This document shows, piece after piece, positions 7,206-63,481 of a DNA stretch of 64,000 nt (position 1 is its first letter; each line of letters begins with the position of its first letter). This DNA is from Chiloscyllium plagiosum (taxonomy: Eukaryota). The stretch spans positions 102,338,468 to 102,402,467 of the forward strand of contig NC_057712.1 of NCBI RefSeq assembly GCF_004010195.1, read 5' to 3'. The translations under genes were made by a program, and so were the position numbers. Below the pieces are notes generated by a model. That model was not told where the DNA came from and made no database searches. It worked only from the letters and a program-made list of their open reading frames with translations.

Positions 7206-7224
7206 TCAGATGATTTGATTCTCT

Positions 7225-7752
7225 CACCAGGACAAAACACCCTGCACCCATCATGTGCAAGACTAACATAGTTGACAAGATTCCATGCAAAGACTGCACA
7301 AAACACTATATAGGACAACCAGACAGACAATGAGCAATCTGCATCCACGAACACCAACTAGCCACTAAACACCACAACCAGCTGCTCCTGGTAGCCACAC
7401 ACACAGATGACAAGGACCACAAATTCGACTGGGACAATACAACAACCATAGGACAAGCCAAACAGAGGACAGTCAGAGAATTTCTAAAAGCATGGCACTT
7501 ACCATCAACAAGCACATAGACCTAGACCCAATATACTGGCCACGACAACAAACAACCGGAACTGGTAACCAGAAACAACAGGAACGGACCTAAATAAATT
7601 CCACAAGACACAGTAAAGTAGCACTTCACAGGAGGCACTGAGTATGTCACCTCGACAGGGGATAAAACGTCTGCAAATCAACTTTTTAGCTTGGCCAACA
7701 TTCCCACAATGACAGCAACCAGTACCCAAGCTAAAAGTTTATACACAAACTG
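7225..7752 (+). mobile_element. Degenerate Penelope-like 3' end (GIY-YIG plus pseudo-LTR with a decayed hammerhead at 7635-7674)
   Basis: Translates KTNIVDKIPCKDCTKHYIGQ..*..HEHQLATK..FDWDNT..REFLKAWH, homologous to 1162-1590; motif gca-ctgagta-tgtcacct-cgac-aggggat-aaaa-cgtc-tgc. Confidence 0.88.
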
Positions 7753-27709: not shown

Positions 27710-28815
27710 AAACAAAGACCTGCGTAGGCTGGAAATCTGAAACATGATCAGAACTTGCTGGAGAAACTCAACATGCCTGACAGCATCTGTGAGGAGAAAG
27801 CAGCGATAATGTTTCAAATCAGGTGACTCTTCATCAGAACGGTTAGTAGCGAGGGAAAAGAGGGAGCGATGCTGAAGCCATACTGTGGTGGGTGGTGGAT
27901 AGGGGGGAAGGGGAGGAGGGGAGAGGGAAGCAGAGAGAGAGATATGAAAGGGCCATCAACCCACCAGCATTCACATCCAAAGGACCGGAAGTCGCTATTT
28001 TCATCATTCCCCTCCCCTCCATTGGCAGCCTACTGCAGGGACCATTCCCTCCGGAACACTCTTCTCCAGTCCTCCTCCATTCCCAACATCTTCTCACATT
28101 CCCATGACACCTTGCCCTGCAACAGCAGAAGGTATAGCACCTGACCATTTATTTCCCCCCTCCTCACCATCCAAGGCCCCAACCATACCTTCCACATGAA
28201 GCACTTCACTCAATCTAGTCGACTGCATTTGCTGCTCACAATGTGGTCTCCTCTCCTTTCGGGAAGCAAAGTACAGACCAGGTGACCACTTTGCAGCATC
28301 ACTTGGGCTGGGTCCTTAAGAATTAGCTTAGGTTTTCAGGTTCGTGCCACTTCAACACTGTGTTCCCATGCCCACATTTCTGTCACAGGACTGCTCAAAG
28401 AACAGCATCGCATTTTCCACTCAGGGTCCTTGCAGCCTCTAGGGTTTAACATTGAGCTCACAGCCTGATTCTATCCTTCCCTGCTTTTTCCTCACACCAC
28501 ACCTTCAGCACGGTGACCAATTCTCACCAATGCCCCACATTATATGGGTTGCAATCAGCATAGCTAACTCCATTTTCTCACTATTGATTCTTATTATCTC
28601 TTCTTGTGCTTTACATCTTCCAACCTGGCCTGCTATCTATTATCTCTTTGCTGACTTTCATATCTGTTTCTCTCTGGGCTCGGCCTCCGCCTGCCTGCTC
28701 ACCTCTCCCCTTCTCCCCCCACCACCAACCCCCTCCTTCCCCACTTCAGCTTCGGTAGAAATATCACTTTTTCCAAGCTGCTCTCAGTTCTGATAAAGAG
28801 TCACCAGTTATGAAA
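27710..28815 (+). mobile_element. Degenerate Penelope-like 3' end (Neptune-like) with an inverted terminal arm carrying a hammerhead
   Basis: AYCRDHSLRNTL..TLPCNSRR..T, then VDCICCSQCGLL..GEAK..GDHFA (decayed zinc finger plus GIY-YIG); minus-strand ctgatga-agagtc-acct-gattt-gaaa-catt at 27805-27840; decayed plus copy near 28790. Confidence 0.75.
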
Positions 28816-29022: not shown

Positions 29023-30214
29023 ATTTGTATCATCAATAGTCACAGGTGAGGTGCCACAAGGCTGGAGAGTGGCTAACGTGGTGCCACTGTTTAAGAAGGG
29101 TGGTAAGGACAAGCCAGGGAACTATAGACCGGTGAGCCTGACATCGGTGGTGGGCAAGTTGTTGGAGGGAATCCTGAGGGACAGGATGTACAAGTATTTG
29201 GAAAGGCAAGGACTGATTCGGGACAGTCAACATGGTTTTGTGCGTGGGAAATCATGTCTCACACACTTGACTGAGATTTTTTGAAGAAGTAACAAAGAGG
29301 ATTGATGGGGCAGAGCAGTAGATGTGATCTATATGGATTTCAGCAAAGCGTTTGACAAGGTTCCCCTTGGAAGACTGGTTAGCAAGGTTAGATCTCATGG
29401 AATACAGGGAGAACTAGCCATTTGAATGTAGAACTGGCTCAAAGGTAGAAGACAGAGGGTGGTGGTGGAGGATGGTCCAGTTTTTCAGACTGGAGGCCTG
29501 TGACCAGTGGAGTGCCACAAGGATCGGTGCTGGGTCCACTGCTTTTCATCATTTATATTAATGATTTGGATGTGAACATAAGAGGTGTAGTTAGTAAATT
29601 TGCAGATGACACCAAAATTGGAGGTGGAGTGGACAGCAATTAAGGTTACCTTAGATCAATGGGATCTTGATCAAATGGACCAATGGGCTGAGAAGTGGCA
29701 GATGGAGTTTAATTTAGAAAAATGTGAGGTGCTGCATTTTGGAAAAACAAGTCTTAGCAGGACTTATACACTTAATGGTAAGGTCCTAGGGAGTGTTGCT
29801 GAACAAAGAGACCTTGGAGTGTAGGTTCATAGCTCCTTGAAAGTGGAGTTGCAGGTAGATAGGATAGTGAAGGCGGGTTTGGTATGCTTTCCCTTATCGG
29901 ACAGAACATTGAGTACAGGAGTTGGGAGGTCATGTTGCAGCTGTACAGGACATTAGTTAGGCCACTTTTGGAATATTGCGTGCAATTCTGGTCTCCTTCC
30001 TTGAGAAACTTGGAAGGGTTCAGGAAAGATTTACAAGGATGTTGCCAGGGTTGGAGGATTTGAGATATTGGGAGAGGCTGAATAGACTGGGGCTGTATTG
30101 CCTGGAGTGTCAGAGGCTGAGGGGTGACTTTATACAGGTTTATAAAATCATGAGGTGCATGGATAGGATAAATAGACAAAGTCTTTTCCCTGGGGTGGGG
30201 CAGTCCAGAACTAG
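29023..30214 (+). mobile_element. Internal CR1 ORF2 (RT) fragment lacking its 3' tail
   Basis: WRVANVVPLFKKG..NYRPVSLTS..QHGFVRGKSCLT; closely similar to the reverse complement of 19130-20300. Confidence 0.93.
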
Positions 30215-30394
30215 ACGGCAGTCTTAATATACATGAAGTAGTATTCTAAAGAAACCCAGGACAGAAGAAGGTACTTGATGTTGCTTTCTCCTTACGCAGT
30301 CAGAGTTGAACCCAATCTCATGGCTACCTTCTCATGGAAAATTTTCGAGCACCGTGCTGTCTGAACTGGTGTGTGACTGAACTTCAAATATGGT

Positions 30395-33300
30395 GCCAGC
30401 AGTATGAATCCCAGCAGTGCGAATCCCAGTAGCTTGAGTCCCAGCAGTGTGAATCCCAGCAGTGCAAATCTCAATAGCCTGAATCCCAGCAGTGTGAGTC
30501 CCAGCAGTGTGAATCCCAGCAGTGCAAATCCCAGTAGCCTGAATCCCAGCAGTGTGAATCCCAGCAGTGCAAATCCCAGTAGCCTGAGTCCAAACAGTGT
30601 GAGTTTCAGCAGTGTGAATCCCAGCAGTGAAACACCAGTAGCCTGAGTCCCAGCAATGTTAGTCCCAGCAGTGTGAACCTTAGCAATGTCAGTCCCATTG
30701 TGTGAATCCCAGCAGTGAGAATCCCAGCAGTGTGAATCCTAGCAGTGTCAGTCCCAGCAGTGTGAACCCCAGCAGTGTGAATCCTAGCAGTGTCAGTTCC
30801 AGCAGTGTGAGTACCAGCAGAATGAATCCCTGTAACCTGACTCCCAGCAGTGTCTGTCCCAGCAGAGTGAATCCTAGTTTTGTGAATCCCAGCAGTGTCA
30901 GTCCCAGAAGTATGACTCCAGCAGTGTCATTCTCTGGAGTGTGACTCTGAGCTGTGTCAATCCCAGTAGTATGAATCTCAGCCGCATGAGTCCCAACAGT
31001 GTGAATCCCAGCAGTGTGATTCCAAGCAGTGTGAATCCCAGCAGCATCAGTCCCTGAAGTGTGAATGCCAGCAGTGCAAATCCCAGTAGCCTGAGTCCCA
31101 GCGGTGTGAATCCCCACAGTGTGAATCCCAGCAGCGTGATTCCAAGCAATGTGAATCCCAGTAGTACGAATCTCAGCAGTGTGAGTCCCAGCAGCGTGAA
31201 TCCCAGTAGCCTTAGTCCCAGCAGTGTGAGTCCCAGCAGTGTGAATCCCAGCAGTGTCTGTGCCAACTGTGTGAATCCCAGCAGTGTGATTCCAAGCAGT
31301 GTGAATCCCAGCAGCATCAATCCCTGAAGTGTGAATCCCAGCAGTGCAAATCCCAGTAGCCTGAGTCCCAGCAGTGTGAGTCCCAGCAGTATGATTCCAA
31401 GCAGTGTGAGTCCCAGCAGTGTGAATCCCAGCAGTGCAAATCCCAGTAGCCTAGGTCCCAGCAGAGAGAATCCCAGCAGTGTGGATCCCAGCAGCGTCAG
31501 AGCCAGCAGTGTGAAACCCAGCAGTGTGAAACCCAGCAGTGCGAGTCTCAGTAGTATGAATCCCAGCAGCGTGATTCCAAGCAGTGTGAATCACAGTAGC
31601 CTTAGTCCCAGCAGTGTCTGTCCCAGCAATGTTAGTCCCAGCAGTGTGAACCTTAGCAATGTCAGTCCCATTTGTGTGAATCCCAGCAGTGAGAATCTCA
31701 GCAGTGTGAATCCTAGCAGTGTCAGTCCCAGCAGTGTGAACCCCAGCAGTGTGAATCCTAGCAGTGTCAGTCCCAGCAGTGTGAGTACCAGCAGAATGAA
31801 TACCTGTAGCCTGACTCCCAGCAGTGTCTGTCCCAGCAGAGTGAATCCTAGTTTTGTGAATCCCAGCAGTGTCAGTCCCAGACGTATGACTCCCAGCAGT
31901 GTCATTCCCAGGAGTGTGACTCTGAGCTGTGTCAATCCCAGTAGTATGAATCTCAGCAGCATGAGTCCCAACAGTGTGAATCCCAGCAGTGTGATTCCAA
32001 GCAGTGTGAATCCCAGCAGCATCAGTCCCTGAAGTGTGAATGCCAGCAGTGCAAATCCCAGTAGCCTGAGTCCCAGCGGTGTGAATCCCCACAGTGTGAA
32101 TCCCAGCAGCGTGATTCCAAGCAATGTGAAACCCAGTAGTACGAATCTAAGCAGTGTGAGTCCCAGCAGCGTGAATCCCAGTAGCCTTAGTCCCAGCAGT
32201 GTGAGTCCCAACAGTGTGAATCCCAACAGTGTCAGTCCCAGCAATTGTCAGTCCCATTTGTGTGAATCCCATCAGTGTGAAACACAGCAGTCTGAAACCC
32301 AGCAGTGGGAATCACAGCAGTGTGAATCCCAGCAGCGTCAGTCCCAGCAGTGTGAATTCCAACAGTGTGAATCCCAGAATCCTGATTCCCAGCAATGTCT
32401 GTCCCAGCAGTGTGATTCCAAGCAGTTTGAATCCCAGCAGTGCAACTCCCCATAGCCTGAGTCCCAGCAGTCTGAGTCCCAGCAGTGAATCCCAGCAGCG
32501 TGATTCCAAGGAGTGAGAATCCCAGCAGTCTGAGTCCCAGCAATGAGAATTGCAGAAGTGTGAATCCCAGCAGTGAGTCCCAACAGGATGAATCCCAGCA
32601 TTGTGAAACCCAAAGTGAATTCCAGCAGTGTGAGTCCCAACAGTATGAATCCCACCGGTGTGACACCGTGCAATATGAATGCCAGCAGTGTCAATCTTAG
32701 CAGTGTGAATGCCAGTAGTATGAATCCCAGCAGCATGAATCCCAACAGTGTGAATCCCAGCACCGAGATTCCAAGCAGTGTGGATCTCAGCAGCATCAAT
32801 CCCTGAAGTGTGAGTCCAGCAGTGCAAATCCCAATAGCCTGAGTCCTAGCAGCGTGATTCCAAGCAGTGTGAATCCAAGCAGTGTGAATCCCAGTAGTAT
32901 GAATCCCATCAGCATGAGTCCCAACAGTGCGAATGCGAGCAATGTGAATACCAGCATTGTGAAACCCAGCAGTGTGAATCCCTGCAGTTTGAATCCAGGC
33001 AGTGGGGGTCCCAGCAGTGGGAGTCCCAGCAGAGTGAATCCCAGTGGTGAGAATCCCAGCAGAATGAATCCCAGCAGTGTGAGCACCAGCTGTGTCAGTC
33101 CTCACAATGTGAATCCCAGCTGAATGAATTCCAGCAGTATGGATCCCAACAGTGTAGGTCCTAGCAGTGTCAATCCCAGCAGTGTGAGTCTCAGCTGCGA
33201 GAATCCCCGTAGCATGAGACCCAGTAGCGTGAATCCAAGCAGTGTGAATCCCAGCGCAGTCAGTCTTAGCTGTGTGAACCCCAGCTATGTTATTCCCTAC

Positions 33301-36300
33301 TCTGATAATCCCAGCAGTGTGAGTACCAGCCGTCTGAATCCCAGAAGTGTGAACCCCAGCGGTGAGAATCCCAGCAGCGTCAGTCCCAGCAGTGTGAATC
33401 CCAGCAGTGTGAATCCCAGCAACGCCAGTCCAAACATTGTTAATCCCAGCACTGCCATTCCCAGCAGTGTGAATCCCAGCAGTGTGAATCCCAGCAATGT
33501 TATTCCCCACTGTGATAATCCCAGCAGTGTGAATCCCAGCAGTGAATCCCATCAGTTTGAGTACCATCAGTGTGAATCCCAGCAGTGTGAGTCCCAGCTG
33601 TGTGAATCCCAGCAGTGAGAATCCCAGCAGTGTGAGTCCCAGCTGTGTGAATCCCAGCAGTGAGAATCCCAGCAGTGTGAATCCCAGCTGTGTGAATCCC
33701 AGCAGTGAGAATCCCAGTAGCCTGATTCCCAGCAGAGAGAATCCCAGTAGCCTGATTCCCAGCAGTGTCTGTCCCAGCAGTGAGAATCCCAGCAATGTGA
33801 GTCCCAGCAGTGTGAGTCCCAACCGTGTGGGTCCCAATAATATGAATCCCAGCATTGTGAAACCCAGTGTGAATCCCAGCAGTTTGAACCCCACCAGTGT
33901 GACTCCGTGCGGTGTGAATCCCAGCAGTGTCAGTCCCAGCAGGGTGTAACCCAGCAGTGTGAGTCTCGCCTGCATGAATCCGGGCAGTGTGAGACCCAGC
34001 AGTATGAATCCCAGGATTCTGAATCCCAGCATTATTTGTCCCAGCAGTGTGAATCCCAGCAGTGCCAGTCCAAACAGTGTGAATCCCAGAAGTGAGAATC
34101 CCAGCAGTGTCAGTCCCAGCAGTGTGAATCCCAGCAGTGTCTGTCCCAACCATGTGAATCTCAGCAGTGTCAGTTCCACAAGTTTGAATCTCATCAGTGT
34201 GAGCCCCAGCCATGTCAATCCCAGCAGTGAAAATCCCCGCAGTGTCAGTCCTACAATTGTGAATCCTAGCGGTGTGAGTGCCACAATTGTGAATCCGAAC
34301 AGTGAGAATTCCCGCAGTGTGAATCCCAGCCGTGTCAGTCCCAACAGAGAGAATCCCAGTAGTGTCAGTCCCAGCAATTTGATTCCCAGCAGTGTCAGTC
34401 CCAACAGTGTGAGTCACAGCAGTATGTCCCAGCAGCATGAATCACAGCAGCAACAGTCCAAGCAGTGTGAATCCTAGCTGCGTGAATCCCAGCAGTGTCA
34501 CTCCCAACAGTATGAATCTCAGCAGTGAGAGCCCCAGCAATTTCTGTCCCAGCAGTGCAAATCCCAGCAATTTCTGTCCCAGCAGTGTGAATCCCAGCAG
34601 TGTGGGTCCCAGCAGTTTGAATCCCAGCAGAGCGAGACTCAGCAGTGTGAGTCCCATAGTGTGATTCCCAGCAGTGTGAGTCCCAGCAGTTTGAATCCCA
34701 GCAGTGTGAATCCCAGCAGTGTGAGTCCCAGCTGTTTGAATACCAGGAGTACGAGTCCCAGCAGTGTGAGTCCCAGCAGTGATTATTCCAGCTGTTTGAA
34801 TCCCAGCAGTGTGAATCCCAGCAGTGTGAATTCAAGCAATGTGATTCCCCATAGTGTGAACACCAGCTTTTTCAGACCTAGCAGTGTAAATCCTAGTAGT
34901 GTCAATCACAACCTTGTGAATCCCAGCAGTGTCAGTCCCAACAATGTGAATCCCAGCAGTGTGAGTGCCTGCAGTGTTAAACGCCGCAGTGTGAGCACCA
35001 GCTTTGACAGTTCTAGCAGTCTGAATCCCAGCAGTGTGAGTCCCAGCAGTGTGTCCCAGCAGCGTGAATCACAGCAGGCTGAATCCTAGGAGTGTGAATC
35101 CCAGCAATGTCAGTCCCAGAAGTACGAATCCCAGCAGCAACAGTCCAAGCAGTGTGAATCCCAGCAGCATCACTCCCAGCAGTGTGAAACCCAGCAATGT
35201 GAATCCCAGCAGCTAGAGCTCCAGCAGTGGGAGACCCAACAGAATGAATCTCAGTGGTGAGAATCCCAGCAGAGTGAATCCCAGCAGTGTAAGCACCTGC
35301 TGTGTCAGTCCTTGCAATGTGAATCCCAGTTGAATGAATCCCAGCAGTGTGAATCCCAGCAGTGTCAGTCCCAGCAGTGTCAGTCCCAGCAGTGTCAGTC
35401 TCAGCAGCGAGAATCCCTGCAGTACGAGACCCAGTAACGTGAATCCCAGCAGTGTGAATCCCTGCAGTGTGAATCACAGGATGCTGAACCCCAGCACTGT
35501 TTGTCCCAGCAATGAGACTTACTGCAACACCAGCCCTCGCAGTGTGAATCCCAGCAGTGTCACTCCCAACAATGTCACTCCCAGCAGTGTGAGTCTCAGC
35601 AGTGCGTGTCCCAGCAGTATGAATCCCACCAGTGTGTGTCCCAGCAGTGTGATTCCCAGGATTGTGAATCCCAGCAGTGTGAGTCCCAGCAGATTAAATC
35701 GCAGCAGTGTGATTCCCAGCAGTATGAATCGCAGCAGTGCCAGTACAAGCAATGAGAATTCCAGCACTGCAAGTCCCAGCAGCATCAGTTCCAGCAGTGT
35801 GAGTCCCAGCAGTATGAATCCCAGCAGTGTGCATTCCAGCAGTTGGAAACAAAGCAATGTGATTCCCAGCAGTTAGAATCCCAGCAATGTGAATCCCAGC
35901 AGCTAGAGCTCCAGCAGTGTGAATCCCAACAGTGTGATCCTAGCCGTGTGAGTCCCAGAAGAGTGAATTCCAAACTTGTAAATCCCAGCAGTGAGAATCC
36001 CAGCAGAATGAGTCCAAGCAATGTGAATGCCAGTCATGTCAATCTCAGTAGTGTCAGTTCCAGCAGTGTGAATCCCAGCAGTGAGTAACCCAGCACTGTC
36101 ATTCCCAGCAGTGTGAATCCCACGATGTGAATACAAAAAATGTGAATCTCAGCAGTTTGAATCCCAGCAGAGTGAGCTCCAGTAGTATGAATCCCTGCAG
36201 TGTGAATCCCAGCAGTCTGAATCCCAGCAGTGCGAGTCCCAGCAGTGCAAGTCCCAGCAATGTGAATCCCAGCAGTGTCACTCCCAGCAATGTGAATCTC

Positions 36301-39300
36301 TGTGGTGCGAGTCCCAGTAGAGTGAGTCCCAGCAGTTTTGTCCCAGCAGTGTCTATCCTAGCAGATTAAATCACAGCAGTGTGAATCCCAGCAGTATGAA
36401 TCCAAGCAGCGTCTGTCCCAGCAGTCTGAGTCCCAGCAATATGAATCCCTGCAGTGTGCATCTCAGCAGTGTGAGTCCAGGCAGTTTGCGTCCCAGCAGT
36501 GTGAATCCCAGCAGATGGAATCCCAGCAGTGTGAATACCAGCAGTATGAGTCCCCACAGTTTGAATCCCAGGAGTATGAGTCCCAGCAGTGTGAATCCCA
36601 GCAGTGTGAATCACAGGATGCTGAATCCCAGCACTGTTTGTCCCAGCAATGTGACTTACTTCGACACCAGCCCTAGCAGTGTGAATCCCAGCAGTGTCAC
36701 TCCCAACAATGTCACTCCCAGCAGTGTGAGTCCCTGCAGTGTGAGTCCCTGCAGTGTCACTCCCAGCAATGTGAATCTCAGCGGTGTGAGTCCCAGCAGA
36801 TTAATTCGCAGCAGTGTGATTCCCAGCAGTATGAATCGCAGCAGTGCCAGTACAAGCAATGAGAATCCCAGCACTGCAAGTCCCAGCAGCATCAGTTCCA
36901 GCAGTATGAATCCCAGCAGTGTGCATCCCAGCAGTTGGAAAGAAAGCAATGTGATTCCCAGCCAGCAGTGTGCATCCCAGCAGTTGGAAAGAAAGCAATG
37001 TGATTCCCAGCAGCTAGAGCTCCAGCAGTGTGAATCCCAGCAGTGTGATTCCCAGCAGTGAGAATCCCAGCAGTTAGAATCCCAGCAATGTGAATCCCAG
37101 CAGCTAGAGCTCCAGCAGTGTGAATCCCAACAGTGTGATCCTAGCCGTGTGAGTCCCAGAAGAGTGAATCCCAACCTTGTGACTCCCAGCAGTTTGAATC
37201 CCAGCAGAATGAGTCCAAACAATGTGGATGCCAGCCATGTCAATCTCAGTAGTGTCAGTTCCAGTAGTGTGAATCCCAGCAGTGAGTATCCCAGCAGTTT
37301 GAATCCCAGCAGTGAGTATCCCTGCACTGTCATTCCCAGCAGTGTGAATCCCACGATGTGAGTACGAACAATGTGAATCCCAGCAGTTTGAGTCCCAGCA
37401 GAGTGAGCTCCAGTAGTATGAATCCCAGCAGTGCAAGTCCCAGCAGTCTCACTCCCAGCAATGTGAATCCCAGCAATGTGAATCCCAGCAGTGCCATTCC
37501 CAGCAATGTGAATCTCAGCGATGCGAGTCCCAGTAGAGTGAGTCCCAGCAGTGTCTATCTCAGCAGATTAAATCACAGCAGTGTGATTCCTAGCAGTATG
37601 AATCTCAGCAGCATCCGTCCCAGCAGTCTGACTCCCAGCAATATGAATCCCTGCAGTGTGCATCTTAGCATGTGAGTCCAGGCAGTATGCTTCCCAGCAG
37701 TGTGAATACGAACGAATGGAAACCCAGCAGTTTGAATCCCAGCAGAGTGAGCTCCAGTAGTATGAATCCCTGCAGTGTGAATTCCAGCAGTATGAATCCC
37801 AGCAGTGTCACTCCCAGCAATGTGAATCCCAGCAATGTGAATCCCAGCAGTGTCACTCTCAGCAATGTGAATCTCAGTGGTGCGAATCCCAGTAGAGTGG
37901 GTCCCAGCAGTTTTTGTCCCAGCAGTGTCTATCCCAGCAGGGTGAGTCCCAGCAGATTAAATCACAGCATTGTGATTCCCAGCTGTATGAATCCCAGCAA
38001 CGTCCATCCCAGCAATATGAATCCCTGCAGTGTGCATCTCAGCAGTGTGACTCCAGGTAGTGTGCTTCCCAGCAGACGGAATCCCAGCAGTGTGAATACC
38101 AGCAGTGTGAGTCCCCCAGTTTGAATCCCAGGAGTATGAGTCCTAGCAGTGTGAATCCCAACAGTTTGAATCCCAACAGTGTGATCCCAGCAGTGTGAGT
38201 CCCGGCACTGATATTCCCAGCCGTGAGATTCCCACGAGTGTGAATGCGAGCAATGTGAATCCCAGCAGTGTGAATCACAGGATGTTGAATCCCAGCACTC
38301 TTTCTCCCAGCAATGTGAATTCCTGCAACACCAGCCCTAGCAGTGTGAATCCCAGCAATGCCACTCCCAGCAGTGTGAGTCTCAGCAGTGCGTGTTCCAG
38401 CAGTGTGAATCCCACCAGTGTGTGTACCAGCAGTGATTCCCAGGGGTGTGAATCCCAGCAGTGAGAATCCAGCAGTGTGAATCCCAGCAGTGTGAATCCC
38501 ACCAGTGTGTGTACCAGCAGTGTGATTCCCAGGAGTGTGAATCCCAGCAGTGAGAATCCAGCAGTGTGAATCCCAGCAGTGTGAATCCCAGCAGTGTCAC
38601 TCCCAGCAATTTGAATCCCAGCAGTGTGATTCCCAGCAGTATGAATCCCATCAGCGCCAGTCCAAGCAGTGAGAATCTCATCACTGTAAATCCCAGCAGC
38701 ATCAGTCCCAGCATGGTGAGTCTCAGCAGTATGAATCCCAGCAGTGTGATTCCCAGCAGTTGGAATCCCCGCTGTTTGAATCCCAGGAGCATGAGTCCCA
38801 GTAATGTGCAACACAGCCGTGAGAATCCAGTGAAAATCCAGCAGTGTGAATCCCAGCAGTTAGTATCCCAGCACTGTCATTCCCAGCAGTGAGATTCCCA
38901 CGAGTGTGAAACCCAGCTGTGATTAGCTTACATTACAGTGTGGAAACAGGCCCTTCGGCCAAATAAGTCCACACCGACCCGCCAAAGCGCAACCCACCCA
39001 TACCCCTATATTTACCTCTTACCTAACACTACGGGCAATTTAGCATGGCCAATTCACCTGACCTGCACATCTTTGGACTGTGGGAGGAAACCGGAGCACC
39101 CGGGGGAAACCCACGCAGAGAACGTGCAAACTCCACACAGTCAGTCGCCTGAGGCGGGAATTGAACCCGGGTCTCTGGCGCTGTGAGGCAGCAGTGCTAA
39201 CCACTGTGCCACCGTGCCGCCCACAGTGTGAGTGGCAGCAGTGTGAGTCCCACCAATGCGAATCCCAGCAGTGTGAATCCCAGCACTGAGAATCCAGCAG

Positions 39301-41213
39301 TGTGAATCCCACAATATGAATCCCAGCAGTGTCACTCCCAGCAATGTGAATTTCAGCAGTGCGAGTCCCAGTAGAGTGAATCCCAGTAGTTTCTGTCCCA
39401 GCAGTGTCTATTCCAGCAGCGTAAATCCCAGCAAATTAAATCGCAACAGTGTGATTCCCAGCAGTATGAATCCCAGCAGCGTCCTTCCCAACAGTATGAA
39501 TTCCTGCAGTGTGCATCTCAGCAGTGTGACTCCAGGCAGTGTGAATCCCAGCAGATGGAATCCCAACAGTGTGAATGCTAGTAGTGTGAGTCCCCGCAGT
39601 TTGAATCCCAGGAGTATGAGTCCCAGCAGTGTGAATCCCAGCAGTTTGAATCCAACAGTGTGATCCCAGCAGTGTGAGTCCCAGCACTGACATTCCCAGC
39701 AGTGAGATTCCCATGAGTGTGAATGTGAGCAGTGTGAATCCCAGCAGTGTGAATCACAGCAATGTGAATCACAGGATGCTGAATCCCAGCACTCTTTCTT
39801 CCAGCAATGTGAATTCCCACAACACCAGCCCTAGCAGTGTGAATCCCAGCAATGTCACTCCCAGCATTGTCACTCCCAGCAGTGTGAATCCCACCAGTGT
39901 GTGTCCCAGCAGTATGATTCCCAGGAGTGTGAAACCCAGCAGTGTGATTCCCAGGACTGTGAATCCCAGCAGTTTGAATCCAAGCAGCGTCACAACCAGC
40001 AGTGTCACTCCCAGCAATGTGAATCCTAGCAGTGTGAATCCCAGCAGTATGATTCCCAGCAGTATGAATCCCATCAGCGCCAGTCCAAGCAGTGAGAATC
40101 TCAGCACTGTAAGTCCCAGCAGCATCAGTCCCAGCAGTGTGAGTCCCAGCAGTGTGAGTCCCAGCAGTATGAATCCCAGCAGTGTGCATCTCAGCAGTGT
40201 GAATCCCAGCAATGTGATTCCCAGCAGTTAGAATCCCAGCAGTGTCACACCCAGCAGTGAGCATCCCAGCAGTGTGAGTCCCCACTGTTTGAATCCCAGG
40301 AGCATGAGTCCCAGTAGTGTGCAACACAGCAGTGAGAATCCTGCAGTATGAATCCCAGCAGTGAGTATCCTAGCACTGTCATTCCCAGCAGTGTTAAATC
40401 CCGCAATGGGAATCCTAGCTGCAAGAGTTCCAGCAGTGTCAATTCCAGCAGTTTGTGCACCAGCTGTGTAAATCCCAGCAGTGTCAGTCCCACAAGTGTG
40501 ATTCCCAGCTGCATGAGTTCCAGCAGTGTGAGTCCCAGCAGTGTGAATCCCAGCAGTGTGAATCCCAGCAGTGCGAATCCCAGCAGTGTGAATCCCAGCA
40601 ATGTGAGCACCAGCTGTGTCAGTCCTTGCAATGTGAATCCCAGCTGAATGAATCCTAGCAGTGTGAATCCCAGCAGTGAGAATCCCAGGAGTGTGAATCC
40701 CAGCAGTGTGAATCCCAGCAGTGTCTGCCACAACCCTGTGAATCCCAGCAGTGTTAGTCCCAGCAGTGTGAATCACAGCAGGCTGAATCCCAGGAGTGTG
40801 AATCCCAGCGCTGTCAGTCCCAGCAGTAAAAATCCCAGCAACGACAGTCCAAGCAGTGTGAATCCCAGCAGTGTCACACCCAGCAGTATGAGTCCCAGCA
40901 TTGTATCCCAGCATTGTGAGTGCCTGCAGTATGAAAGCCAGCAATGTGAATCCCAGCAGCAGGAGTTCCAGCAGTGTGAGCCCCAGCAGTTTGTATCCCT
41001 GCAGTGTAAGCACCAGCGGTGTCGGTCCTAGCAGTGTGAATCCCAGCAGTATCCATCCCAGCAGTGTGAATCCCAGCGCTGTCAGTTCCAGCAGTGTGAG
41101 GCCCAGCATAGTAAATCCCAGCAGTATGAATCCTAGCATTGAAAATTCCAGCAGTGTGAGTCCCAGCGTTGTGAATCCCAACAGTGTCTGTCCCAGCAGT
41201 TTGAATCCCAGCG
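30395..41213. repeat. ~10.8 kb minisatellite, 15-bp unit GTGAATCCCAGCAGT (roughly 700 variant units)
   Basis: Direct reading; generates (VNPSS)n, (CESQQ)n, (GFTLL)n, (GIHTA)n and (WDSHC)n ORFs. Confidence 0.98.
38921..39222 (-). mobile_element. Young full-length HE1/V-SINE-type SINE inserted in the minisatellite
   Basis: tRNA head with A box (tggcacagtgg) and B box (ggttcaattccc), V-domain, CR1-like tail; CpGs retained. Confidence 0.93.
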
Positions 41214-41639: not shown

Positions 41640-41726
41640 TACTCTAAAGGTTCTTAAAGTCACTTGAACCTTCCAAAATATTTCAATCAAATTCAAAATA
41701 TTCTCCCCAGGGCCAATTCCAAGCTC

Positions 41727-41927
41727 GGTAAAAATAATGACTGCAGATGCTGGAAACCAGATTCTGGATTAGAGGTGCTGAAAATGCACAGCAGTTCAGG
41801 CAGCATCCGAGGAACAGTAAAATCGATGTTTCGGGCAAATTCCTGATGAAGGGCTTTCGCCTGAAACGTCGATTTTACTGCTCCTTGGATGCTGCCTGAA
41901 CAGCTGTGCTTTTCCAGCACCTCTAAT
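41727..41927. mobile_element. 201-bp inverted PLE-derived mini-element with a 14-bp TSD
   Basis: CCAATTCCAAGCTC at 41713-41726 and 41928-41941; the two arms are reverse complements. Confidence 0.9.
41839..41874 (+). ncRNA. Minimal hammerhead ribozyme motif
   Basis: attc-CUGAUGA-A-GGGC(UUUC)GCCU-GAAA-C-GUC-gatt; core intact, stem I weak. Confidence 0.75.
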
Positions 41928-43139
41928 CCAATTCCAAGCTCCCCATGAATGGCTCCCCCTGAGGCATTCTCAAAGCATGGGATTCTGGGTGTTCTCTTCA
42001 CAAAGTTTCTGCAACCTGTGAACTTTCTCAACTTGAGGAAGAATTCATGTGGAATCAGGATGGACTTGAAATTCCTTTTAGCTCCTGGACACTATTTGAA
42101 TCAAATTCTTTGTAAAAATGATGGAATTACCTCAGTGCTTAGGCAGACCATCAGGTCTTCAGTATCAGCTCTGGAGGTTTGTTCACCTGAGCCAACTATC
42201 TATTCTCACTCCTTTGCCAGTACCGAGGTGAGTGTATGGATGCAATAAAATGTAGGCAACAGTAAATGTCACAAGTCAGTCTCGCCATTCAATTTAGGCC
42301 AATTTGAAACTGATCAGTCATTTAGTTAACTAAAATCAGATATTTTTATCGCTTTCCTAAGGGGAAGGTATAAAGTCCATCTCGTTGATTTTATTTTTGA
42401 GTGCCAAAGTGCTTTGTCTTAATGCCAATAGCAATAATGTTTCATCCCACCCTCTCCCAGCTCTCAATCTCATATATTAGGTAATTGGGTACCGAGACCG
42501 TACTCCCTCACCTTCCCAGCAATAATCCGGATTTAATAAGTGTTAATAAAATGGCGATCCATTCGAGCTGAGCAGTGCCACAACATCAACAGATCTCAAC
42601 ATTTTACCTCATCAAGGGGCAGCGTTTTCTTTAAAGGTTCAGGATACTAACTGGAGTTACTGCAAGGAACATAAATAATAACATCACAGTTGTATATCTT
42701 TTCAGATGTGGGTTTTTATTTTGGTGATTTTAATACCTTAATCTAAATACTTTTGCAGTTTGCACCAAAGAGGCTGGAAATCCTCTCGAATCATGTTCCA
42801 TCCTGTTGCTTCACATGACCTAATCTCGAGGCCAAAGCCAACGTGTATTGGGACCTGGGGCCATTTATTTGGGTGAATTGTGAATGCATCTGAATTTCTG
42901 CAGGTAGCTCACCCTTTTGAGGAATATGAATGTCGGGGCTGCCAGCCCTCTCTGGTGATCCAGAGTCAGGGTCAACTGCCAATGAGTGAGAGAAAGCAAA
43001 CGAGAGCACCGTAAAGCCGAGGGAAGCACAGTTACTCCCTTTAGCTTCAGAGCAATGAGTAAAGAGCAAAAAGCTGCTGAAGCCATTTAAACCCAGTTCC
43101 TGATCTGATCATTGCTCTCCACTTTCAGCAAGGGAGTTA

Positions 43140-49859: not shown

Positions 49860-50993
49860 AGCAAGATGGTGGCAGAGTAGGGCGGCCCACCCAGATCTCC
49901 CCTGCTCCATTTGTTCTTTTTCTGCTTTTCTCTTTTTAGCAGTCCCAGAACGGTGTGAGGGGTAACAGTCCCTGAGAAACACGAGAGGAGTGAGACCCAG
50001 AGCAGCGAGGGGGGAACCGTGTCCCAGAACGGTGTGTGGGGTAACAGTCCCTGAGTAACACCAGGGGAGTGAGACCCAGAGCAGAGAGAGGGGAACCGTG
50101 TCCCTGAACGGTGTGTGGGGTAACAGTCCCTGAGAAACACCAGGGATGTGAGACCCAGAGCAAGGAGAGGGGAACCGTGTCCCAGAACGGTGTGTGGGGT
50201 AACAGTCCCTGAGAAACACGAGGGGAGTGAGACCCAGAGCAGCGAGAGGGGAACCGTGTCCCTGAACGGTGTGTGGGGTAACAGTCCCTGAGAAACACGA
50301 GGGAAGTGAGACCCAGAGCAGCGAGAGGGGAACCGTGTCCCAGAGCAGTGTGTGGGGAAACAGTCCCTGAGTAACACGAGGGAAGTGAGACCCAGAGCAG
50401 CGAGAGGGGAACTGTGTCCCAGAACGGTGTGTGGGGTAACAGTCCCTGAGTAACACGAGGGGTGGGAGACCCAGAGCAGCGAGAGGAGAACCGTGTCCCA
50501 GAGCAGTGTGTGGGGAAACAGTCCCTGAGCAATGCAAGGGGAAGCAAGTCCTAGAGTAGTGTAACTGCCCTTGTTGCAGCTGAGTGCTGGTTTGGAGTGG
50601 TGTGGAGACTCAGAGCGAAGTGTGATAGTTGTTGGATGGGGGCCTGGTGCAGGCTGTCAGACCACATGCTCACTGAGCTGTCAGACCACATGCTCACTAA
50701 GCTGCTGCAATACCGCTGCAACGTAATATCAACCTGAAATTCTTTACCGAGCCGTCATGTCAATCCTTTAACTCTGTTATAACAATCTTATTTCTCAATT
50801 ATTTTTTAGACAGTGTAAGTAATGTTCCTACTTTTCCTTTCATTCCTCTTTTGTATCCAAGGTTTGTTCCTAGATACTTGTATCTAAGATGGTGCCATTA
50901 TAGGTAGCCATTGCAAAACCTTTTCACTGTACTCCTGTACTTCCACACCGGAGTCCACATGACAATAAAAGACTTTCTATTCTATTCTATTCA
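49860..50993 (+). mobile_element. Composite non-autonomous retroposon with an internal VNTR and a LINE-type 3' tail
   Basis: Starts agcaagatggtggcag; ends cttttcactgtac...cacatgacaataaaa..(ctatt)n; flanked by AGTAAATAGTC (49849-49859) and AGTAAGTAATC (50994-51004). Confidence 0.65.
49942..50530. repeat. 79-bp VNTR, about 7.5 copies
   Basis: Unit starts at 49942, 50021, 50100, 50179, 50258, 50337, 50416 and 50495. Confidence 0.95.
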
Positions 50994-51895
50994 AGTAAGT
51001 AATCTGTTGAAATCTAATCATTTATTTTCAGGAGAACAAGGCAGAACATATTCTTCAGAAAAGCATCCTTGTGGATAGAGTCAGTTAGCTGATAATTTTC
51101 AAGAAGTGACCAAATGACCAATTGTTTTTCGACCTTCGCTGCATTTATACAAAACCTGTTATTGCGGATTGGGTGAAACATTAGCAGCTGATTCACATCC
51201 AAATAGAAAAAAATGTTCATGCGTTTATCCCTCCAAATTTCTGAAATTAATTTTAAGTTGAATTGATTATTTAAATCTTATGGATAATTTTCTACTGATA
51301 TTTTCGATTGAACTTTGCTGTGATTGACACAGCAGTCACCTCACATAGGTACCCAGAGACTTCTCTCTGAGTCGTCTGCAAAGCTTCTTCATTGTTGAGG
51401 ATGTGACCCAGTGTAACATCCTCTGTAGGGGAACTGTAATAACCATGAGCAGTGCAACAAGCAAAGACGCTCTTCAACCAACCCAAATGGAGAACCGTGC
51501 AGATGTTCAACTAAACAGAACCCAACGTGGCAATTAGCAAATCACTTGCACAGTGGGAACAGGAAAGGTACTGTGCAGATCTGAACTAAATAAAAGTCAA
51601 ACTTTATTTTTTTCAAAAGTTCTTAACATACAGAATTACTTTTTCTGATCTAGACAGGTAGTTCAACCGTAATGATCATATAATATGCATTCGAGAACTA
51701 AGTCATAGCTGATTGCATTAGCTCAGATCTTTACCCCTGGCTTTAACATGATTACTGATTCCAAATTCACACCATTATTGTGATTTCAGTGCAGATCACA
51801 TTGGCAAACCCTTCAGCACTCTTGTGAAGGTACAGAGTACAGCTGAGAGCAACTTCTGGATTGAACTATGCACTTGCAGGCAGCAGATGTTACTG

Positions 51896-52027
51896 ATTCC
51901 TGATGAAGGGCTTTTGCCCGAAACATCAATTCTCCTGTTCCTCGGAGGCTGCCTGACCTGCCGTGCATTTCCAGCACCACTCTAATCTAGACTCTGGTTT
52001 CCAGCATCGGCAGTCCTTGTTTTTACC
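51896..52027 (+). mobile_element. PLE-derived short element beginning at a hammerhead motif (51896-51931)
   Basis: attc-ctgatga-a-gggc-tttt-gccc-gaaa-c-atc-aatt, then the family tail ...ccagcatcggcagtccttgtttttacc. Confidence 0.8.
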
Positions 52028-55327: not shown

Positions 55328-56312
55328 TAGGATGAAGCAAGGATTAAACCAATGGGATGATAGAAAGTAGGAATTCACTTATTCAATATACTCGAGTATC
55401 ATGATTGAGACTGTGAATAATTGATGAAAATCTCATCAGAGATTGCTGGCTACACTGAAACGGTTGGGCCTAGCTCACTACCCTGAGGAACTCCTGCAGA
55501 GGTGCCCTGGAGCTGGGATGCATGGTCTTCCAGCAATCACAACCATCTTCTTTTATAGCAGGCATGACTCCAACTTCCGGAGAGTTTTCCCTTGATTCCC
55601 ATTGACTCCTGTTTGGCGAGGCCTCCTTGACGTTACACTCAGTCAAATGTGGATGTTAAAGTGGATACTTCCGTAGGGCTGCCTTTGGCAATTGAGCAGT
55701 TGCTTGGAGATGCTTGGTTTGACAGTTAACTGAAAGGCATTTGTCCAGTTCCTTTCAACAGTGCAATGGTTGACTTCTGTTTTCTGCAATCTGGGAGACT
55801 TTATTTATTTTTACCTGCACACATAGAACTGCATTACAGAAGGTCTCAGCTGTGCCCCTTCACAGCAGACTATTGTACAGTGGAACTTGAACCACAGGCT
55901 AGACACTGGCATGCCAGGACATTTGTTGAAAACATCATGATCAAAGACGTTTCAGGATATTTGGAATATTAGAATAATAAACATATCACATGGTGGAAAT
56001 AATGCATGCCTAAGAGAAGGATTCTCACTGAGGATGGTACGTGTAGCCTAGCCAACCTATAAGCTTGGAACTGTATAGAATCATCCCTGGTGTTGCACTT
56101 TTCACCCAGCCTGGTTCATACTCGGAATGGCCTGCTCTAAATCTGATCTTGATCAAATGGAATAAATCAGGCAGAGTTATCTTCTCAAAACATGGAAGAG
56201 AGAGCATGAAAACTGGATTTGGTTTAGAAAATACCTCATAACTGTTTGGAGATACTCTCATTTTATTAGTCAAAGCAGTGAGCTGTCAGCCTTGGCTCAC
56301 TGATAGTTCCGG

Positions 56313-56692
56313 GATAAAGTGAGGACTGCAGATGCTGGAGATCACAGTCGAGAGTCTGGTGCTGGAAAAGCACAGCAGGTCTGGCAGCATCTGAGGAGCA
56401 GGAGAGTCAATGTTCCGGGCATAAGTCCTTCATCAGGAATTGAGAGGACTTCGGGAGTACAGTGACAGAGGGACTCATGAGATTCTTGCAGAGAGAGGAG
56501 GAGAACTTCTTTAAGGTAGGCATCCTTGGAAGACGCTTCGCAGTAAGGTTGAAATCAACTAAGAAAGAGTGAGGACTGCAGATGCTGGAGGTCAGAGTCA
56601 AGAGTGTGGGGTGCTGGAAAAGTACAGCCGGTCAGGCAGCATCAGAGGAGCAGGAGAATCGAAGTTTCAGGCACAAGCCCTTCATCAGGAAT
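56313..56692 (-). mobile_element. Tandem pair of hammerhead-bearing PLE terminal repeats separated by a ~125-bp spacer
   Basis: Direct repeats 56313-56440 and ~56565-56692; on the minus strand each begins attc-ctgatga-... Confidence 0.85.
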
Positions 56693-56697
56693 CGAGA

Positions 56698-57104
56698 ATT
56701 TCCCTGGAGCATCAGAGGCTGAGGGGTGACCTTATAGAGGCTTACAAAATTATGAGGGGCATGGATAGGGTAAATCGGCAAAGTCTTTTCCCTGGGGTCA
56801 GGGAGTCCAGAACTAGAGGGCATAGGTTTAGGGTGAGAGGGGAAAGATATAAAAGAGACCTACGAGGCAACTTTTTCACACAGAGGATGGTACGTGTAGG
56901 GAATGAGCTGCCAGAGGATGTGGTGGAGACTGGTACAATTGCAACATTTAAGAGGCATTTGGATGGGTATATGAATAGGAAGGGTGTGGAGGGATATGGG
57001 TCGGTGGCTGGCAGGTGGGACTAGATTGGGTTGGGATATCTGGTTGGCATGGACGGGTTGAACTGAAGGGTCTGTTTCCGTGCTGTACGTCTCTATGACT
57101 CTCT
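56698..57104 (+). mobile_element. CR1 3' fragment with tail
   Basis: LEHQRLRGDLIEAYKIMRG..FFTQRMV..FKRHLD; ends ctctatgactct. Confidence 0.93.
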
Positions 57105-60798: not shown

Positions 60799-60967
60799 GG
60801 CAGCATCAGGAGGTGGAAGAGTCAATGTTTTGGGTGTAACCCTTCTTCAGAATTAGAGGGTTACACCGGAAACGTTGACTTCTCCACCTCCTAGTGCTGC
60901 CTGTCTGGCAGTGTTCTTCCAGCCCCCTGCTTGTCTACCTTGGATTCCAGCATCTGCAGTTTTTTTG
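60799..60967. mobile_element. Inverted PLE-derived mini-element, another family (stem II gggt-tac-accc)
   Basis: Minus ctgaaga-agggttacaccc-aaaa-catt at 60821-60853 abuts plus agggttacaccg-gaaa-cgtt; tail ccagcatctgcagtttt. Confidence 0.75.
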
Positions 60968-61869: not shown

Positions 61870-62277
61870 GTAAGGGCTTTTGCCCGAAACGTCGATTCTC
61901 CTACTCCTCAGATGCTGTGCTTTTCCAGCACTACACTAATCTAGACTCTGATCTCTAGCAATGGCTAAGAATGGTGGCTCAGTGGTTAGCACTGCTGCCT
62001 CACAGTGCCAGGGTCCCAGGTTCGATTCCAGCCTCGGGTGATTATCTGTGTGGAGTTTACACATTCTCCCCATGTCTGTGTGGGTTTTCTCTTGCAGTCT
62101 AAGGATGTGCAGGCCAGGTGAATTGGCCATGCTAAATTGCACATAGTGTTAGGTGCATTAGTCAGAGGGAAACGGGTCTGGGTGGGTTACTCTTTGGAGG
62201 GTTAGTGTGGACTGGTTGGGCCGAAGGGCCTGTTTCCACACTGTAGGGAATCTAATCTGCAGTCCTCACTTTCACCT
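61870..62277 (+). mobile_element. PLE-derived mini-element (5'-truncated inside the hammerhead) with a 14-bp TSD, split by a SINE
   Basis: ACCTTCTTTTCTTG at 61856-61869 vs ACCTTCTTCTCTTG at 62278-62291; gggcttttgcccgaaacgtc; tail ...ctctagca|SINE|tctgcagtcctcacttt. Confidence 0.8.
61965..62256 (+). mobile_element. HE1/V-SINE-type SINE
   Basis: A box tggctcagtgg, B box ggttcgattcc, V-domain, tail ctgtagggaatctaatct. Confidence 0.9.
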
Positions 62278-62736
62278 ACCTTCTTCTCTTGCCAAGTCTG
62301 AAACCGGACAGGGGCAGGATTGGGAATGGATTAACAGTTTGATTTCTGACATTTTCTGTGCCGTTAATAATATGATCTCGGACTTTGGTTCTAATGTCCT
62401 CACATCACAAGGCATACAAACAAGTAGAAAAAAACATGGACTTTTACTTTAAACCCATAAATAGACCTCTGGCATCCGAAAATTTCTAAAGTTTAATCAA
62501 AAATCACAGTATTATCTGGCAGTGTGTGAGCAAGCATCACTCGAGCTCTGGAATCGGATAGCAGCTGGTTTATTGAGGCAGTGCTGTATTGCTGATGCTG
62601 TCTTTTGGATAATTTAAAACGTATATTTGTCTCGCACCTTCAACACTGATAAATATGACAAGGTATCTGAGGGGAACAATATCAAACAGAACTTGACCTG
62701 AGACACCTAGCTGTGTGCTAAGTCTGATGACCAAAA

Positions 62737-63030
62737 GATTAGATTCCCTACAGTGTGGAAACAGGCCCTTCGGCCCAATCAGTCCACACCAAGTAACCCA
62801 CCCAGACCCACTTCACTCTGATTAACACACCTAACTCTCGGGGCACTTTAACGTGGCCAATTCACCTGACCTGCACATCTTTGGACTATGAGAGGAAACC
62901 AGAGCAAACCCACACCGGCACGGGGAGAATGTGCAAACTCCACACAGACAGTCACCTGAGGCTGGAAACGAACCTGGGTCCCTGACATGGTGGGGCAGCA
63001 GTGCTAACCACTCAGCCATTGTGTCACCCC
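62737..63030 (-). mobile_element. HE1/V-SINE-type SINE
   Basis: Homologous to the other copies; possible TSD ccaaaa(a)g. Confidence 0.9.
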
Positions 63031-63143
63031 AAAAAGGCAGTTCTCTTAAAAAAAACTTTGTATTTGCATAGTGCCTCTAACATACTGATTTGGAGGTGCT
63101 GATGTTGGACTGGGCTGTACAAAGTTAAAAATCACACAACACC

Positions 63144-63413
63144 GTGGGCGGCACGGTGGCACAGTGGTTAGCACTGCTGCCTCACAGCGCCAGAGACCCG
63201 GGTTCAATTCCCGACTCAGGCGACTGACTGTGTGGAGTTTGCACATTCTCCCCGTGTCTGCGTGGGTTTCCTCCGGGTGCTCCGGTTTCCTCCCACAGTC
63301 ACAAAGATGTGCGGGTCAGGTGAATTTGCCATGCTAAATTGCCCGTAGTGTTAGGTTAAAGGGGTAAATGTAGGGGTATGGGTGGGTTGTGCTTCGGCTA
63401 ATCTAATCTCTAA
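63144..63413 (+). mobile_element. Young HE1/V-SINE-type SINE nested in the PLE-derived element
   Basis: Near-identical to the 38921-39222 copy over head and V-domain; part of the tail deleted; ends taatctaatct. Confidence 0.92.
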
Positions 63414-63446: not shown

Positions 63447-63481
63447 CACTAGCTTTCGGAGCACTGCTCCTTCATCAGGTG
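63447..63481 (-). ncRNA. Minimal hammerhead ribozyme motif (CUA triplet)
   Basis: CAC-CUGAUGA-A-GGAGC(AGU)GCUCC-GAAA-G-CUA-GUG: stem I CAC/GUG, 5-bp stem II. Confidence 0.82.

Follow-up and report, generated by a model that had tools for sequence, protein, structure and literature searches.

A pair of hammerhead repeats and its surroundings

The window analysed here, a stretch of 64,000 nucleotides from Chiloscyllium plagiosum, is repeat-rich animal DNA. On its minus strand, two direct repeats (56568-56697 and 56318-56445) flank a short spacer and are 86-86.7% identical over 130 alignment columns, with 10 transitions, 7 transversions and one 2-nt gap between them. Each repeat starts with ATTCC, after which come CUGAUGA, one additional A, a helix II of 4 bp and the second core box of a minimal hammerhead. 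The CUGAUGA boxes stand at 56688 and 56436, and the last triplet bases, which are the predicted cut sites, at 56661 and 56409. An initial annotation, made from the letters alone, had described a repeat-spacer-repeat on this strand with predicted cuts 252 nt apart, and both the layout and the spacing are borne out. Just 5' of ATTCC, TCTC(A/G) is found in both repeats, giving 4/5 upstream bases in common.

Repeat 1 (56562-56697, minus strand), a putative pLTR-type end module of a Penelope-like element (PLE) family, begins 9 nt 5' of its own hammerhead core. Its 3' limit was placed by register with repeat 2 at an offset of 250. Repeat 2 (56312-56445, minus strand) is a standard ~130-nt stub of the same family, and its 3' end is the point where the ends of other copies pile up. 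The locus holds ~1.5 units and is not an array; none of the 11 rows returned by TRF, at settings slightly different from those of Li et al., falls on it. No convincing target-site duplication (TSD) was found around the whole two-repeat unit.

The pairing of the two cores was compared with chance by a core pattern that was relaxed post hoc so that GGAA was admitted, and scored in the window minus its big satellite. This pattern finds 8 cores and one same-strand pair 100-400 nt apart. One hundred Markov simulations gave a mean of 1.3 cores, with zero same-strand pairs in 100/100. The hammerhead pair at 56318-56697 is beyond chance.

The spacer is composed of two parts. The repeated part (56472-56561, minus strand) is the normal follow-on of the pLTR in the repeat family and the probable start of an ORF, with an ATG at 56523 that reads MPTLKKFSSSLCK. 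The junction part (56446-56471, minus strand) is single-copy at 80% likeness and is either heavily mutated parent sequence or filler or host DNA. The initial annotation had taken the ATG as possibly the start of the parent ORF. The ATG is present, but its frame is open 5' into the repeat, so it need not be a start codon. A protein search with the 43-aa spacer frame (P0001) gave 9 candidates, none at E<=1, and a second protein search gave none. An atlas search with the spacer peptide returned only matches below 0.9. The sole phmmer match, P0002 (E 1.4e-15), is a repeat protein of 1,527 aa with the look of a bacterial surface protein, and it was rejected as nine summed weak repeats only. DNA patterns from the spacer and the repeat matched 0 loci in metagenome, prokaryote and viral contigs.

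Repeat 1 abuts the 3' fragment of a neighbouring LINE (56699-57102, plus strand), which we take to be CR1-like. The fragment lies outside the element, is 90% identical to 18842-19244 and has further copies in the window; it may have removed sequence upstream of repeat 1. A Pfam search of 44 ORFs between 41.7 and 64 kb found no host exon or other domain; apart from 39 ORFs of the spacer and its region, the Pfam searches covered a chosen subset of 102 ORFs.

Several other repeats occupy the window. An array at 30396-41212 (10.8 kb) is built of 722 copies of a 15-bp unit with long open frames, among them a Leu/Gly-rich frame of 691 aa that matches Pfam Decapeptide PF25296 (E 5e-16), probably via the repeat alone. 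A minisatellite at 49942-50529 has 7.4 copies of a 79-bp unit with 92% matches. Long LINE remnants lie at 18842-21575 and 29023-30220, the first with an endonuclease domain at 21183-21575, and many 3' fragments of related LINEs are scattered over the window. Nested inverted repeats made of short interspersed elements are clustered at 61973-63356.

The repeat family and the state of its hammerheads

A profile made from the window's copies of the repeat finds 12 matches in the window, 7 of them at E<1e-19. Intact members carry the features of minimal hammerheads (min-HHR), namely the core boxes, the extra base and a palindrome without loop 3. At 41843 in the window, a copy retains the two core boxes and an unbroken ACGT palindrome, with G10.1 paired with U. 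The window copies and the contig joints described below show truncation at the 5' side, 5' partners in inverted or tandem position and fixed 3' ends, and the 5' inversions at window copies 602 and 41731-41921 are typical of PLEs. Protein searches tied no reverse transcriptase (RT) or endonuclease ORF to the family. Judged by motif and insertion architecture, the repeat appears to belong, as end module (pLTR), to a Penelope-like family of extreme abundance. The minimal hammerheads are of the kind found in Penelope-like pLTRs, in agreement with the link that the initial annotation had drawn. Repeats 1 and 2 are 86.7% identical, and unlinked window copies are 81.9-88.0% identical (10 pairs from 5 copies). 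The two repeats are thus no closer to each other than unlinked copies are, which speaks against homogenisation.

A sister family at 950-1660 shows the end of a GIY-YIG domain at 1147-1587 (Pfam E 0.002, below cut-off) immediately followed by the same kind of motif. The best relatives of this fragment are gene models of Stegostoma, Hemiscyllium and Chiloscyllium, several of them with RT (28 matches among 207 candidates). In the truncated PLE of this family, the minimal hammerhead at 1574 looks intact, and 961-1141 and 1466-1646 form an inverted pair (96%). A second GIY-YIG fragment at 7217-7700 is more decayed, is 71% identical to the first and ends in a degenerate hammerhead-like motif. Elsewhere in the window, 41712-41940 consists of head-to-head stubs related to the repeat, with the core at 41843, and is flanked on each side by a 14-nt direct duplication. 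At least four families contribute solo stubs headed by a hammerhead, found at 602-697, 51895-52018, 61872-61965, 60845-60961, 27718-27840 and 63450-63480, and three related stubs in this set start at or near the same ATTCC edge. The Chiloscyllium punctatum gene model P0026 includes the 56318-56697 repeat in antisense. The shark gene models P0004, P0006 and P0026-P0029 include PLE-derived segments, as annotation artefacts or exonised repeats. A literature search on shark hammerheads with retrozyme or pLTR, which covered few subscription journals and left Repbase outside its scope, found no paper on shark PLE hammerheads.

Both cores of the pair are damaged. Core 1 (56661-56688, minus strand; C3 at 56688, G12 at 56668, triplet UUC ending at 56661) reads GAAACUUC; it has lost the helix III palindrome ACGU, which is now ACUU, and has a G10.1-U11.1 wobble. 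Core 2 (56409-56436, minus strand; C3 at 56436, G12 at 56416, triplet AUU ending at 56409) has GGAA, an A-C mismatch in helix II and ACAU where ACGU is expected. Core 2 retains the G10.1-C11.1 pair, as does the window copy at 51900. The initial annotation had placed the damage, GGAA, in one core only; GGAA is confirmed in core 2, but the palindrome of core 1 is also lost. A13 is essential for hammerhead catalysis, and a literature search for A13 mutational data found none.

Minimal hammerheads without loop 3 are described as forming helix III solely as a dimer, through the palindromic ACGU (PMC4209133), and a dimer mechanism is also treated in the accessible text of PMC6155905. Between cores 1 and 2, the dimer helix III would read A-U, C/A, U/C and U-A, with 2/4 pairs broken, and its computed pair probabilities are 0.0. 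Self-pairing of helix III in trans is impossible for either copy of the core. Because the self-complementary ACGU is lost in both cores, the dimeric fold is impossible and no 252-nt monomer is predicted. The initial annotation had proposed that the tandem cores allow the dimeric fold and would release such a monomer, and for the copy at 56318-56697 neither proposal holds. Neither the cut at 56661 nor the one at 56409 is predicted, and the pair is, on its sequence, presumably catalytically inactive. Given the decay of both hammerheads, self-cleavage of a transcript is not expected, nor is any 252-nt monomer or circle from this locus. Rfam gave 0 hammerhead matches at gathering score in the whole window and a single unrelated row (E=0.2) in 56250-56750, a result that is expected for minimal motifs and is evidence neither way. 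The 252-nt monomer has a GC content of 49.6%, and its fold has z = +0.30, with 116/200 shuffles folding equally well.

Copy number, the junction and the origin of the pair

The existence of a family was examined in contigs of public runs, mapped on 56150-56567 (flank, repeat 2 and spacer) at 80% likeness. The contigs are fragmented, and 56,431 matched in X1 (DNA, organism A), 65,400 in X11 (organism B) and 7,462 in X18, a run that is RNA by guess only. Of a fourth run, X22 (raw RNA reads), 0 reads matched, even on the very abundant repeat, which is evidence neither way on expression. Depths are summed over filtered contigs and are not copy numbers. The flank has a depth of 17.9 in X1 and 15.8 in X11, while the summed depth of the repeat in X1 reaches 1.5e7. 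The spacer peaks at 119,520 in X1 (at 56514-56527) and at 82,726 in X11. Its depth in X1 then drops to 2,511 at 56472-56485 and to 19.0 at 56458-56471, and in this last bin it is 0 in X11 and 0 in X18.

At 80% likeness, the join of the spacer to repeat 2 has the depth of a single copy, in contrast to the massive repetition of the parts on either side. The initial annotation had extended its claim from this copy to a family of tandems and had named two findings that would together count against it, a unique arrangement and the absence of any ~250-nt linear or circular RNA. Within the 80% threshold on fragmented contigs, the arrangement appears unique, in line with the first of the two, and the claim of a family is to that extent not supported. 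Since copies share 82-88% identity, near the threshold, old siblings may have escaped the mapping; a young or abundant family would have shown up. The single-copy depth of the exact junction argues against an abundant or young family and is compatible with an old one of low copy number.

About 90 of the 116 spacer bases are, by contig depth, multi-copy sequence that normally comes after the repeat. Contigs that join 56550-56561 to 56312-56316 number at least four in X1, at least seven in X11 and at least one in X18 among the joints listed. The 3' end of the repeat is thus joined to the start of the spacer, which makes the spacer the normal continuation of the repeat. The repeated part of the spacer fits the 5' part of the parent element, and it may be coding sequence there. 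For the last ~26 nt, either parent origin or filler or host DNA would do.

Loose contig ends accumulate at 56312 (778 in X1, 470 in X11, 136 in X18) and at 56440 (867, 860 and 111). At 56312/56316 and 56440, contigs leave the reference into mixed sequence (agreement 0.33-0.41) and not into the spacer. As hundreds of contigs exit at these points, repeat 2 has the standard ends of its family. X1 record 8, which is multi-copy (depth 266), also aligns up to 56445, and the TCTC(A/G) edge may be the repeat family's own upstream edge. Bare stubs joined head to tail (56440 to 56311, ~130-nt period) occur in at least four X1 contigs among the joints listed, and 9 of the 15 joints listed (out of 99) are opposite-strand. 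Together, these joints indicate that tandem and inverted junctions at the edge of the hammerhead arise again and again in this family. The bare-stub tandems would be its shortest units with two hammerheads. At least six contigs join 56440 to 56490 or 56495 (1+1 in X1, 2+1 in X11 and 1+0 in X18, among 15 of the 99 joints). Their shorter sides are 18-23 nt, their depth is near or below single-copy and the letters between are not known; they may be siblings of the same architecture or independent events of the same kind. No piece runs from the repeat into the spacer among the 24 longest of 131,671.

The flank downstream of repeat 2 (56150-56311) is single-copy, without a continuation of the element, and a landing of repeat 2 mid-way in a longer copy is rejected on that ground. 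X1 record 1 spans 56150-56340 with 0 differences. X11 record 9 crosses the flank and the edge of repeat 2 (56179-56344) and differs by 8 substitutions and 4 gap positions out of 170. Organism B shares the flank across the insertion edge, and the edge is therefore older than the split of organisms A and B.

The locus is probably a single old, dead PLE insertion in minimal partial-tandem form, made via a template switch; of the histories considered, this one is the simplest. Its layout would be an end module, ~116 nt of normal follow-on (the probable ORF start) and the end module again. The RT would have started at the usual start point of the family, 56312, and copied ~134 nt in a first run to the front edge of the hammerhead, which is the usual stop of family copies. 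It would then have switched to a point ~116 nt past the usual start on another RNA; alternatively, it could have stayed on the same RNA and skipped ahead by roughly the length of one element, which would amount to an internal deletion. A second run would have reached the same hammerhead front edge, and both hammerheads would have decayed later, with no self-cleavage. The literature on PLEs (PMC8557442, PMC3846280, PMC11167929) describes internal RT starts as well as partial tandems, inverted copies and internal deletions; tails are likewise standard (PMC8557442, PMC3846280). In the Anolis PLE, as presented in the accessible text of PMC11167929, reverse transcription begins within the RNA, 111-118 nt into the ORF. 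Several points weigh against a template switch. No RT or endonuclease ORF is tied to the family, the spacer peptide has no real homologue, no TSD brackets the unit and, at 116 nt, the extension exceeds the tail of 30-40 nt known from the literature. In addition, a pre-formed junction would equally give the common TCTC(A/G) edge, and the contigs that join 56440 to 56490 or 56495 could be siblings.

An unlikely alternative is that two successive insertions built the pair, either as a long-tailed copy at the front of an older stub or as two landings ~26 nt apart. The long-tailed copy would follow from a PLE endonuclease that homes to the ATT of its own pLTR. The Anolis protein cuts by preference at an ATT just downstream of where the ORF meets the pLTR, with possible insertion in its own pLTR (accessible text of PMC11167929), and repeat 2 starts with ATTCC. 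The family is dense, with at least seven related stubs in the window, 56446-56471 is single-copy and could be host DNA, and no TSD is common to the unit. Organism B, moreover, has the flank and the edge of repeat 2 and nothing at 56458-56471, though this gap proves nothing since the contigs were filtered. Against two insertions, both repeats are of the same sequence subtype, in the same orientation and similarly diverged, and the density of stubs, about one per 7-8 kb, makes it unlikely for any given locus that a second copy landed by chance within some tens of bases. The outcome would be equally ordinary debris.

It is quite improbable that the locus is a decayed member of a non-autonomous, retrozyme-like mini-PLE family, consisting of the pLTR and the start of the ORF, with the 1.5 units as a short rolling-circle copy. 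Intact members would then be transcribed as tandems, and a dimeric hammerhead would cut these into monomers of ~200-250 nt, which would close into circles and be reverse-transcribed by a PLE RT. The 252-nt period lies within the 150-450 range reported in PMC7229834, both repeats have 4/5 upstream bases in common, and the few joints of 56440 to 56490 or 56495 occur in both organisms. According to the accessible text of Li et al. (bioRxiv 10.64898/2026.07.22.740005), non-LTR retrozymes are derived from pLTRs and are predicted in the sole chondrichthyan sampled, with a mean of 363 bp. In the Anolis element, the ORF start holds the RNA that insertion requires (PMC11167929), and a mini-element of this kind could thus be open to mobilisation.

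Several results run the other way: the junction has single-copy depth, no repeat-to-spacer piece was seen among those 24 longest, TRF finds no array, the monomer fold is not special and its GC content exceeds the <45% of the description. The accessible text of the literature adds to this. Cleavage by minimal hammerheads is reported as poor even in dimer form (PMC4209133), and 8/9 Xenopus dimers tested by Li et al. were uncleaved. Hammerhead cleavage of the Anolis PLE depended on the protein, insertion in vitro could do without it, and a search of RNA-seq data for ends at the cut site found none (PMC11167929). A more specific version is very doubtful: a worn member of a small, old carpet-shark mini-PLE family made of the hammerhead pLTR and the first ~70-120 nt downstream. 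There is just as slight a chance that its intact members formed circles of ~200-250 nt that the PLE RT copied back, a retrozyme at birth. In this version, the contigs joining 56440 to 56490 or 56495 would be siblings, and the downstream part would probably bind the protein of the element.

In the preferred reading of one partial-tandem insertion, the hammerhead pair is a genuine feature of ordinary origin and is probably inactive. So read, it adds one more decayed PLE end piece to the very many in a shark genome and matters little. Its modest value is that of a fossil in which a two-hammerhead mini-unit would have arisen from a PLE in one step, and it is from such units that retrozymes would start in the origin put forward by Li et al. 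2026. The discovery of a family with intact cores and real circles would provide a natural test of minimal PLE hammerhead cleavage in vivo and of whether PLE reverse transcriptase mobilises circular templates.

Comparison with Penelope-like elements and retrozymes

The comparisons below refer to the accessible text of the papers cited. The shark pair resembles the min-HHR from the pLTR of metazoan PLEs (Cervera and De la Pena 2014, PMC4209133) in its type I topology without loop 3, the extra base between 9 and 10.1 and a short, weak helix I. It also shares the palindromic 15.2-16.2 in intact copies and the massive genome-wide spread as truncated copies. In that work, however, tandem motifs flank an ORF of ~3 kb and close pairs (100-700 bp) are opposite-strand, whereas the shark copies lie 252 nt apart on the same strand and have both lost the palindrome.

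Endonuclease-bearing PLEs form partial tandems of head-to-tail units that run from the pLTR into the ORF start, as at this locus, and fixed 3' ends, inverted 5' copies elsewhere in the family and internally deleted derivatives are likewise shared with them (Craig et al. 2021, PMC8557442; Arkhipova et al. 2013, PMC3846280; Frangieh et al. 2024, PMC11167929). Unlike those partial tandems, the ORF is almost wholly missing here, an extension of 116 nt lies between the repeats in place of a terminal tail of 30-40 nt, and no TSD was found; tail and TSD are both optional in PLEs.

Two direct type I motifs a few hundred nt apart are also typical of non-LTR retrozymes (Cervera and De la Pena 2020, PMC7229834), and pLTR-derived sequence without coding capacity is a further likeness (PMC7229834; Li et al. 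2026). The 252-nt monomer falls within the 150-450 nt given for them. Such retrozymes are further described as multi-copy families with linear and circular monomeric RNAs. The locus differs from them in having ~1.5 units, with no TRF row, where a tandem of at least two full monomers is described. Its minimal cores are both damaged, where two or more consecutive units, each with a full type I hammerhead, are described, and it has a GC content of ~50% without a self-paired fold, where GC <45% and high self-pairing are described. The working definition of Li et al. (bioRxiv 10.64898/2026.07.22.740005) is two consecutive units with complete motifs. As far as the accessible text defines the class, the locus falls outside this definition and lacks most of the features in PMC7229834. 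At most, it would resemble the step at which, in the proposal of Li et al., a retrozyme is born.
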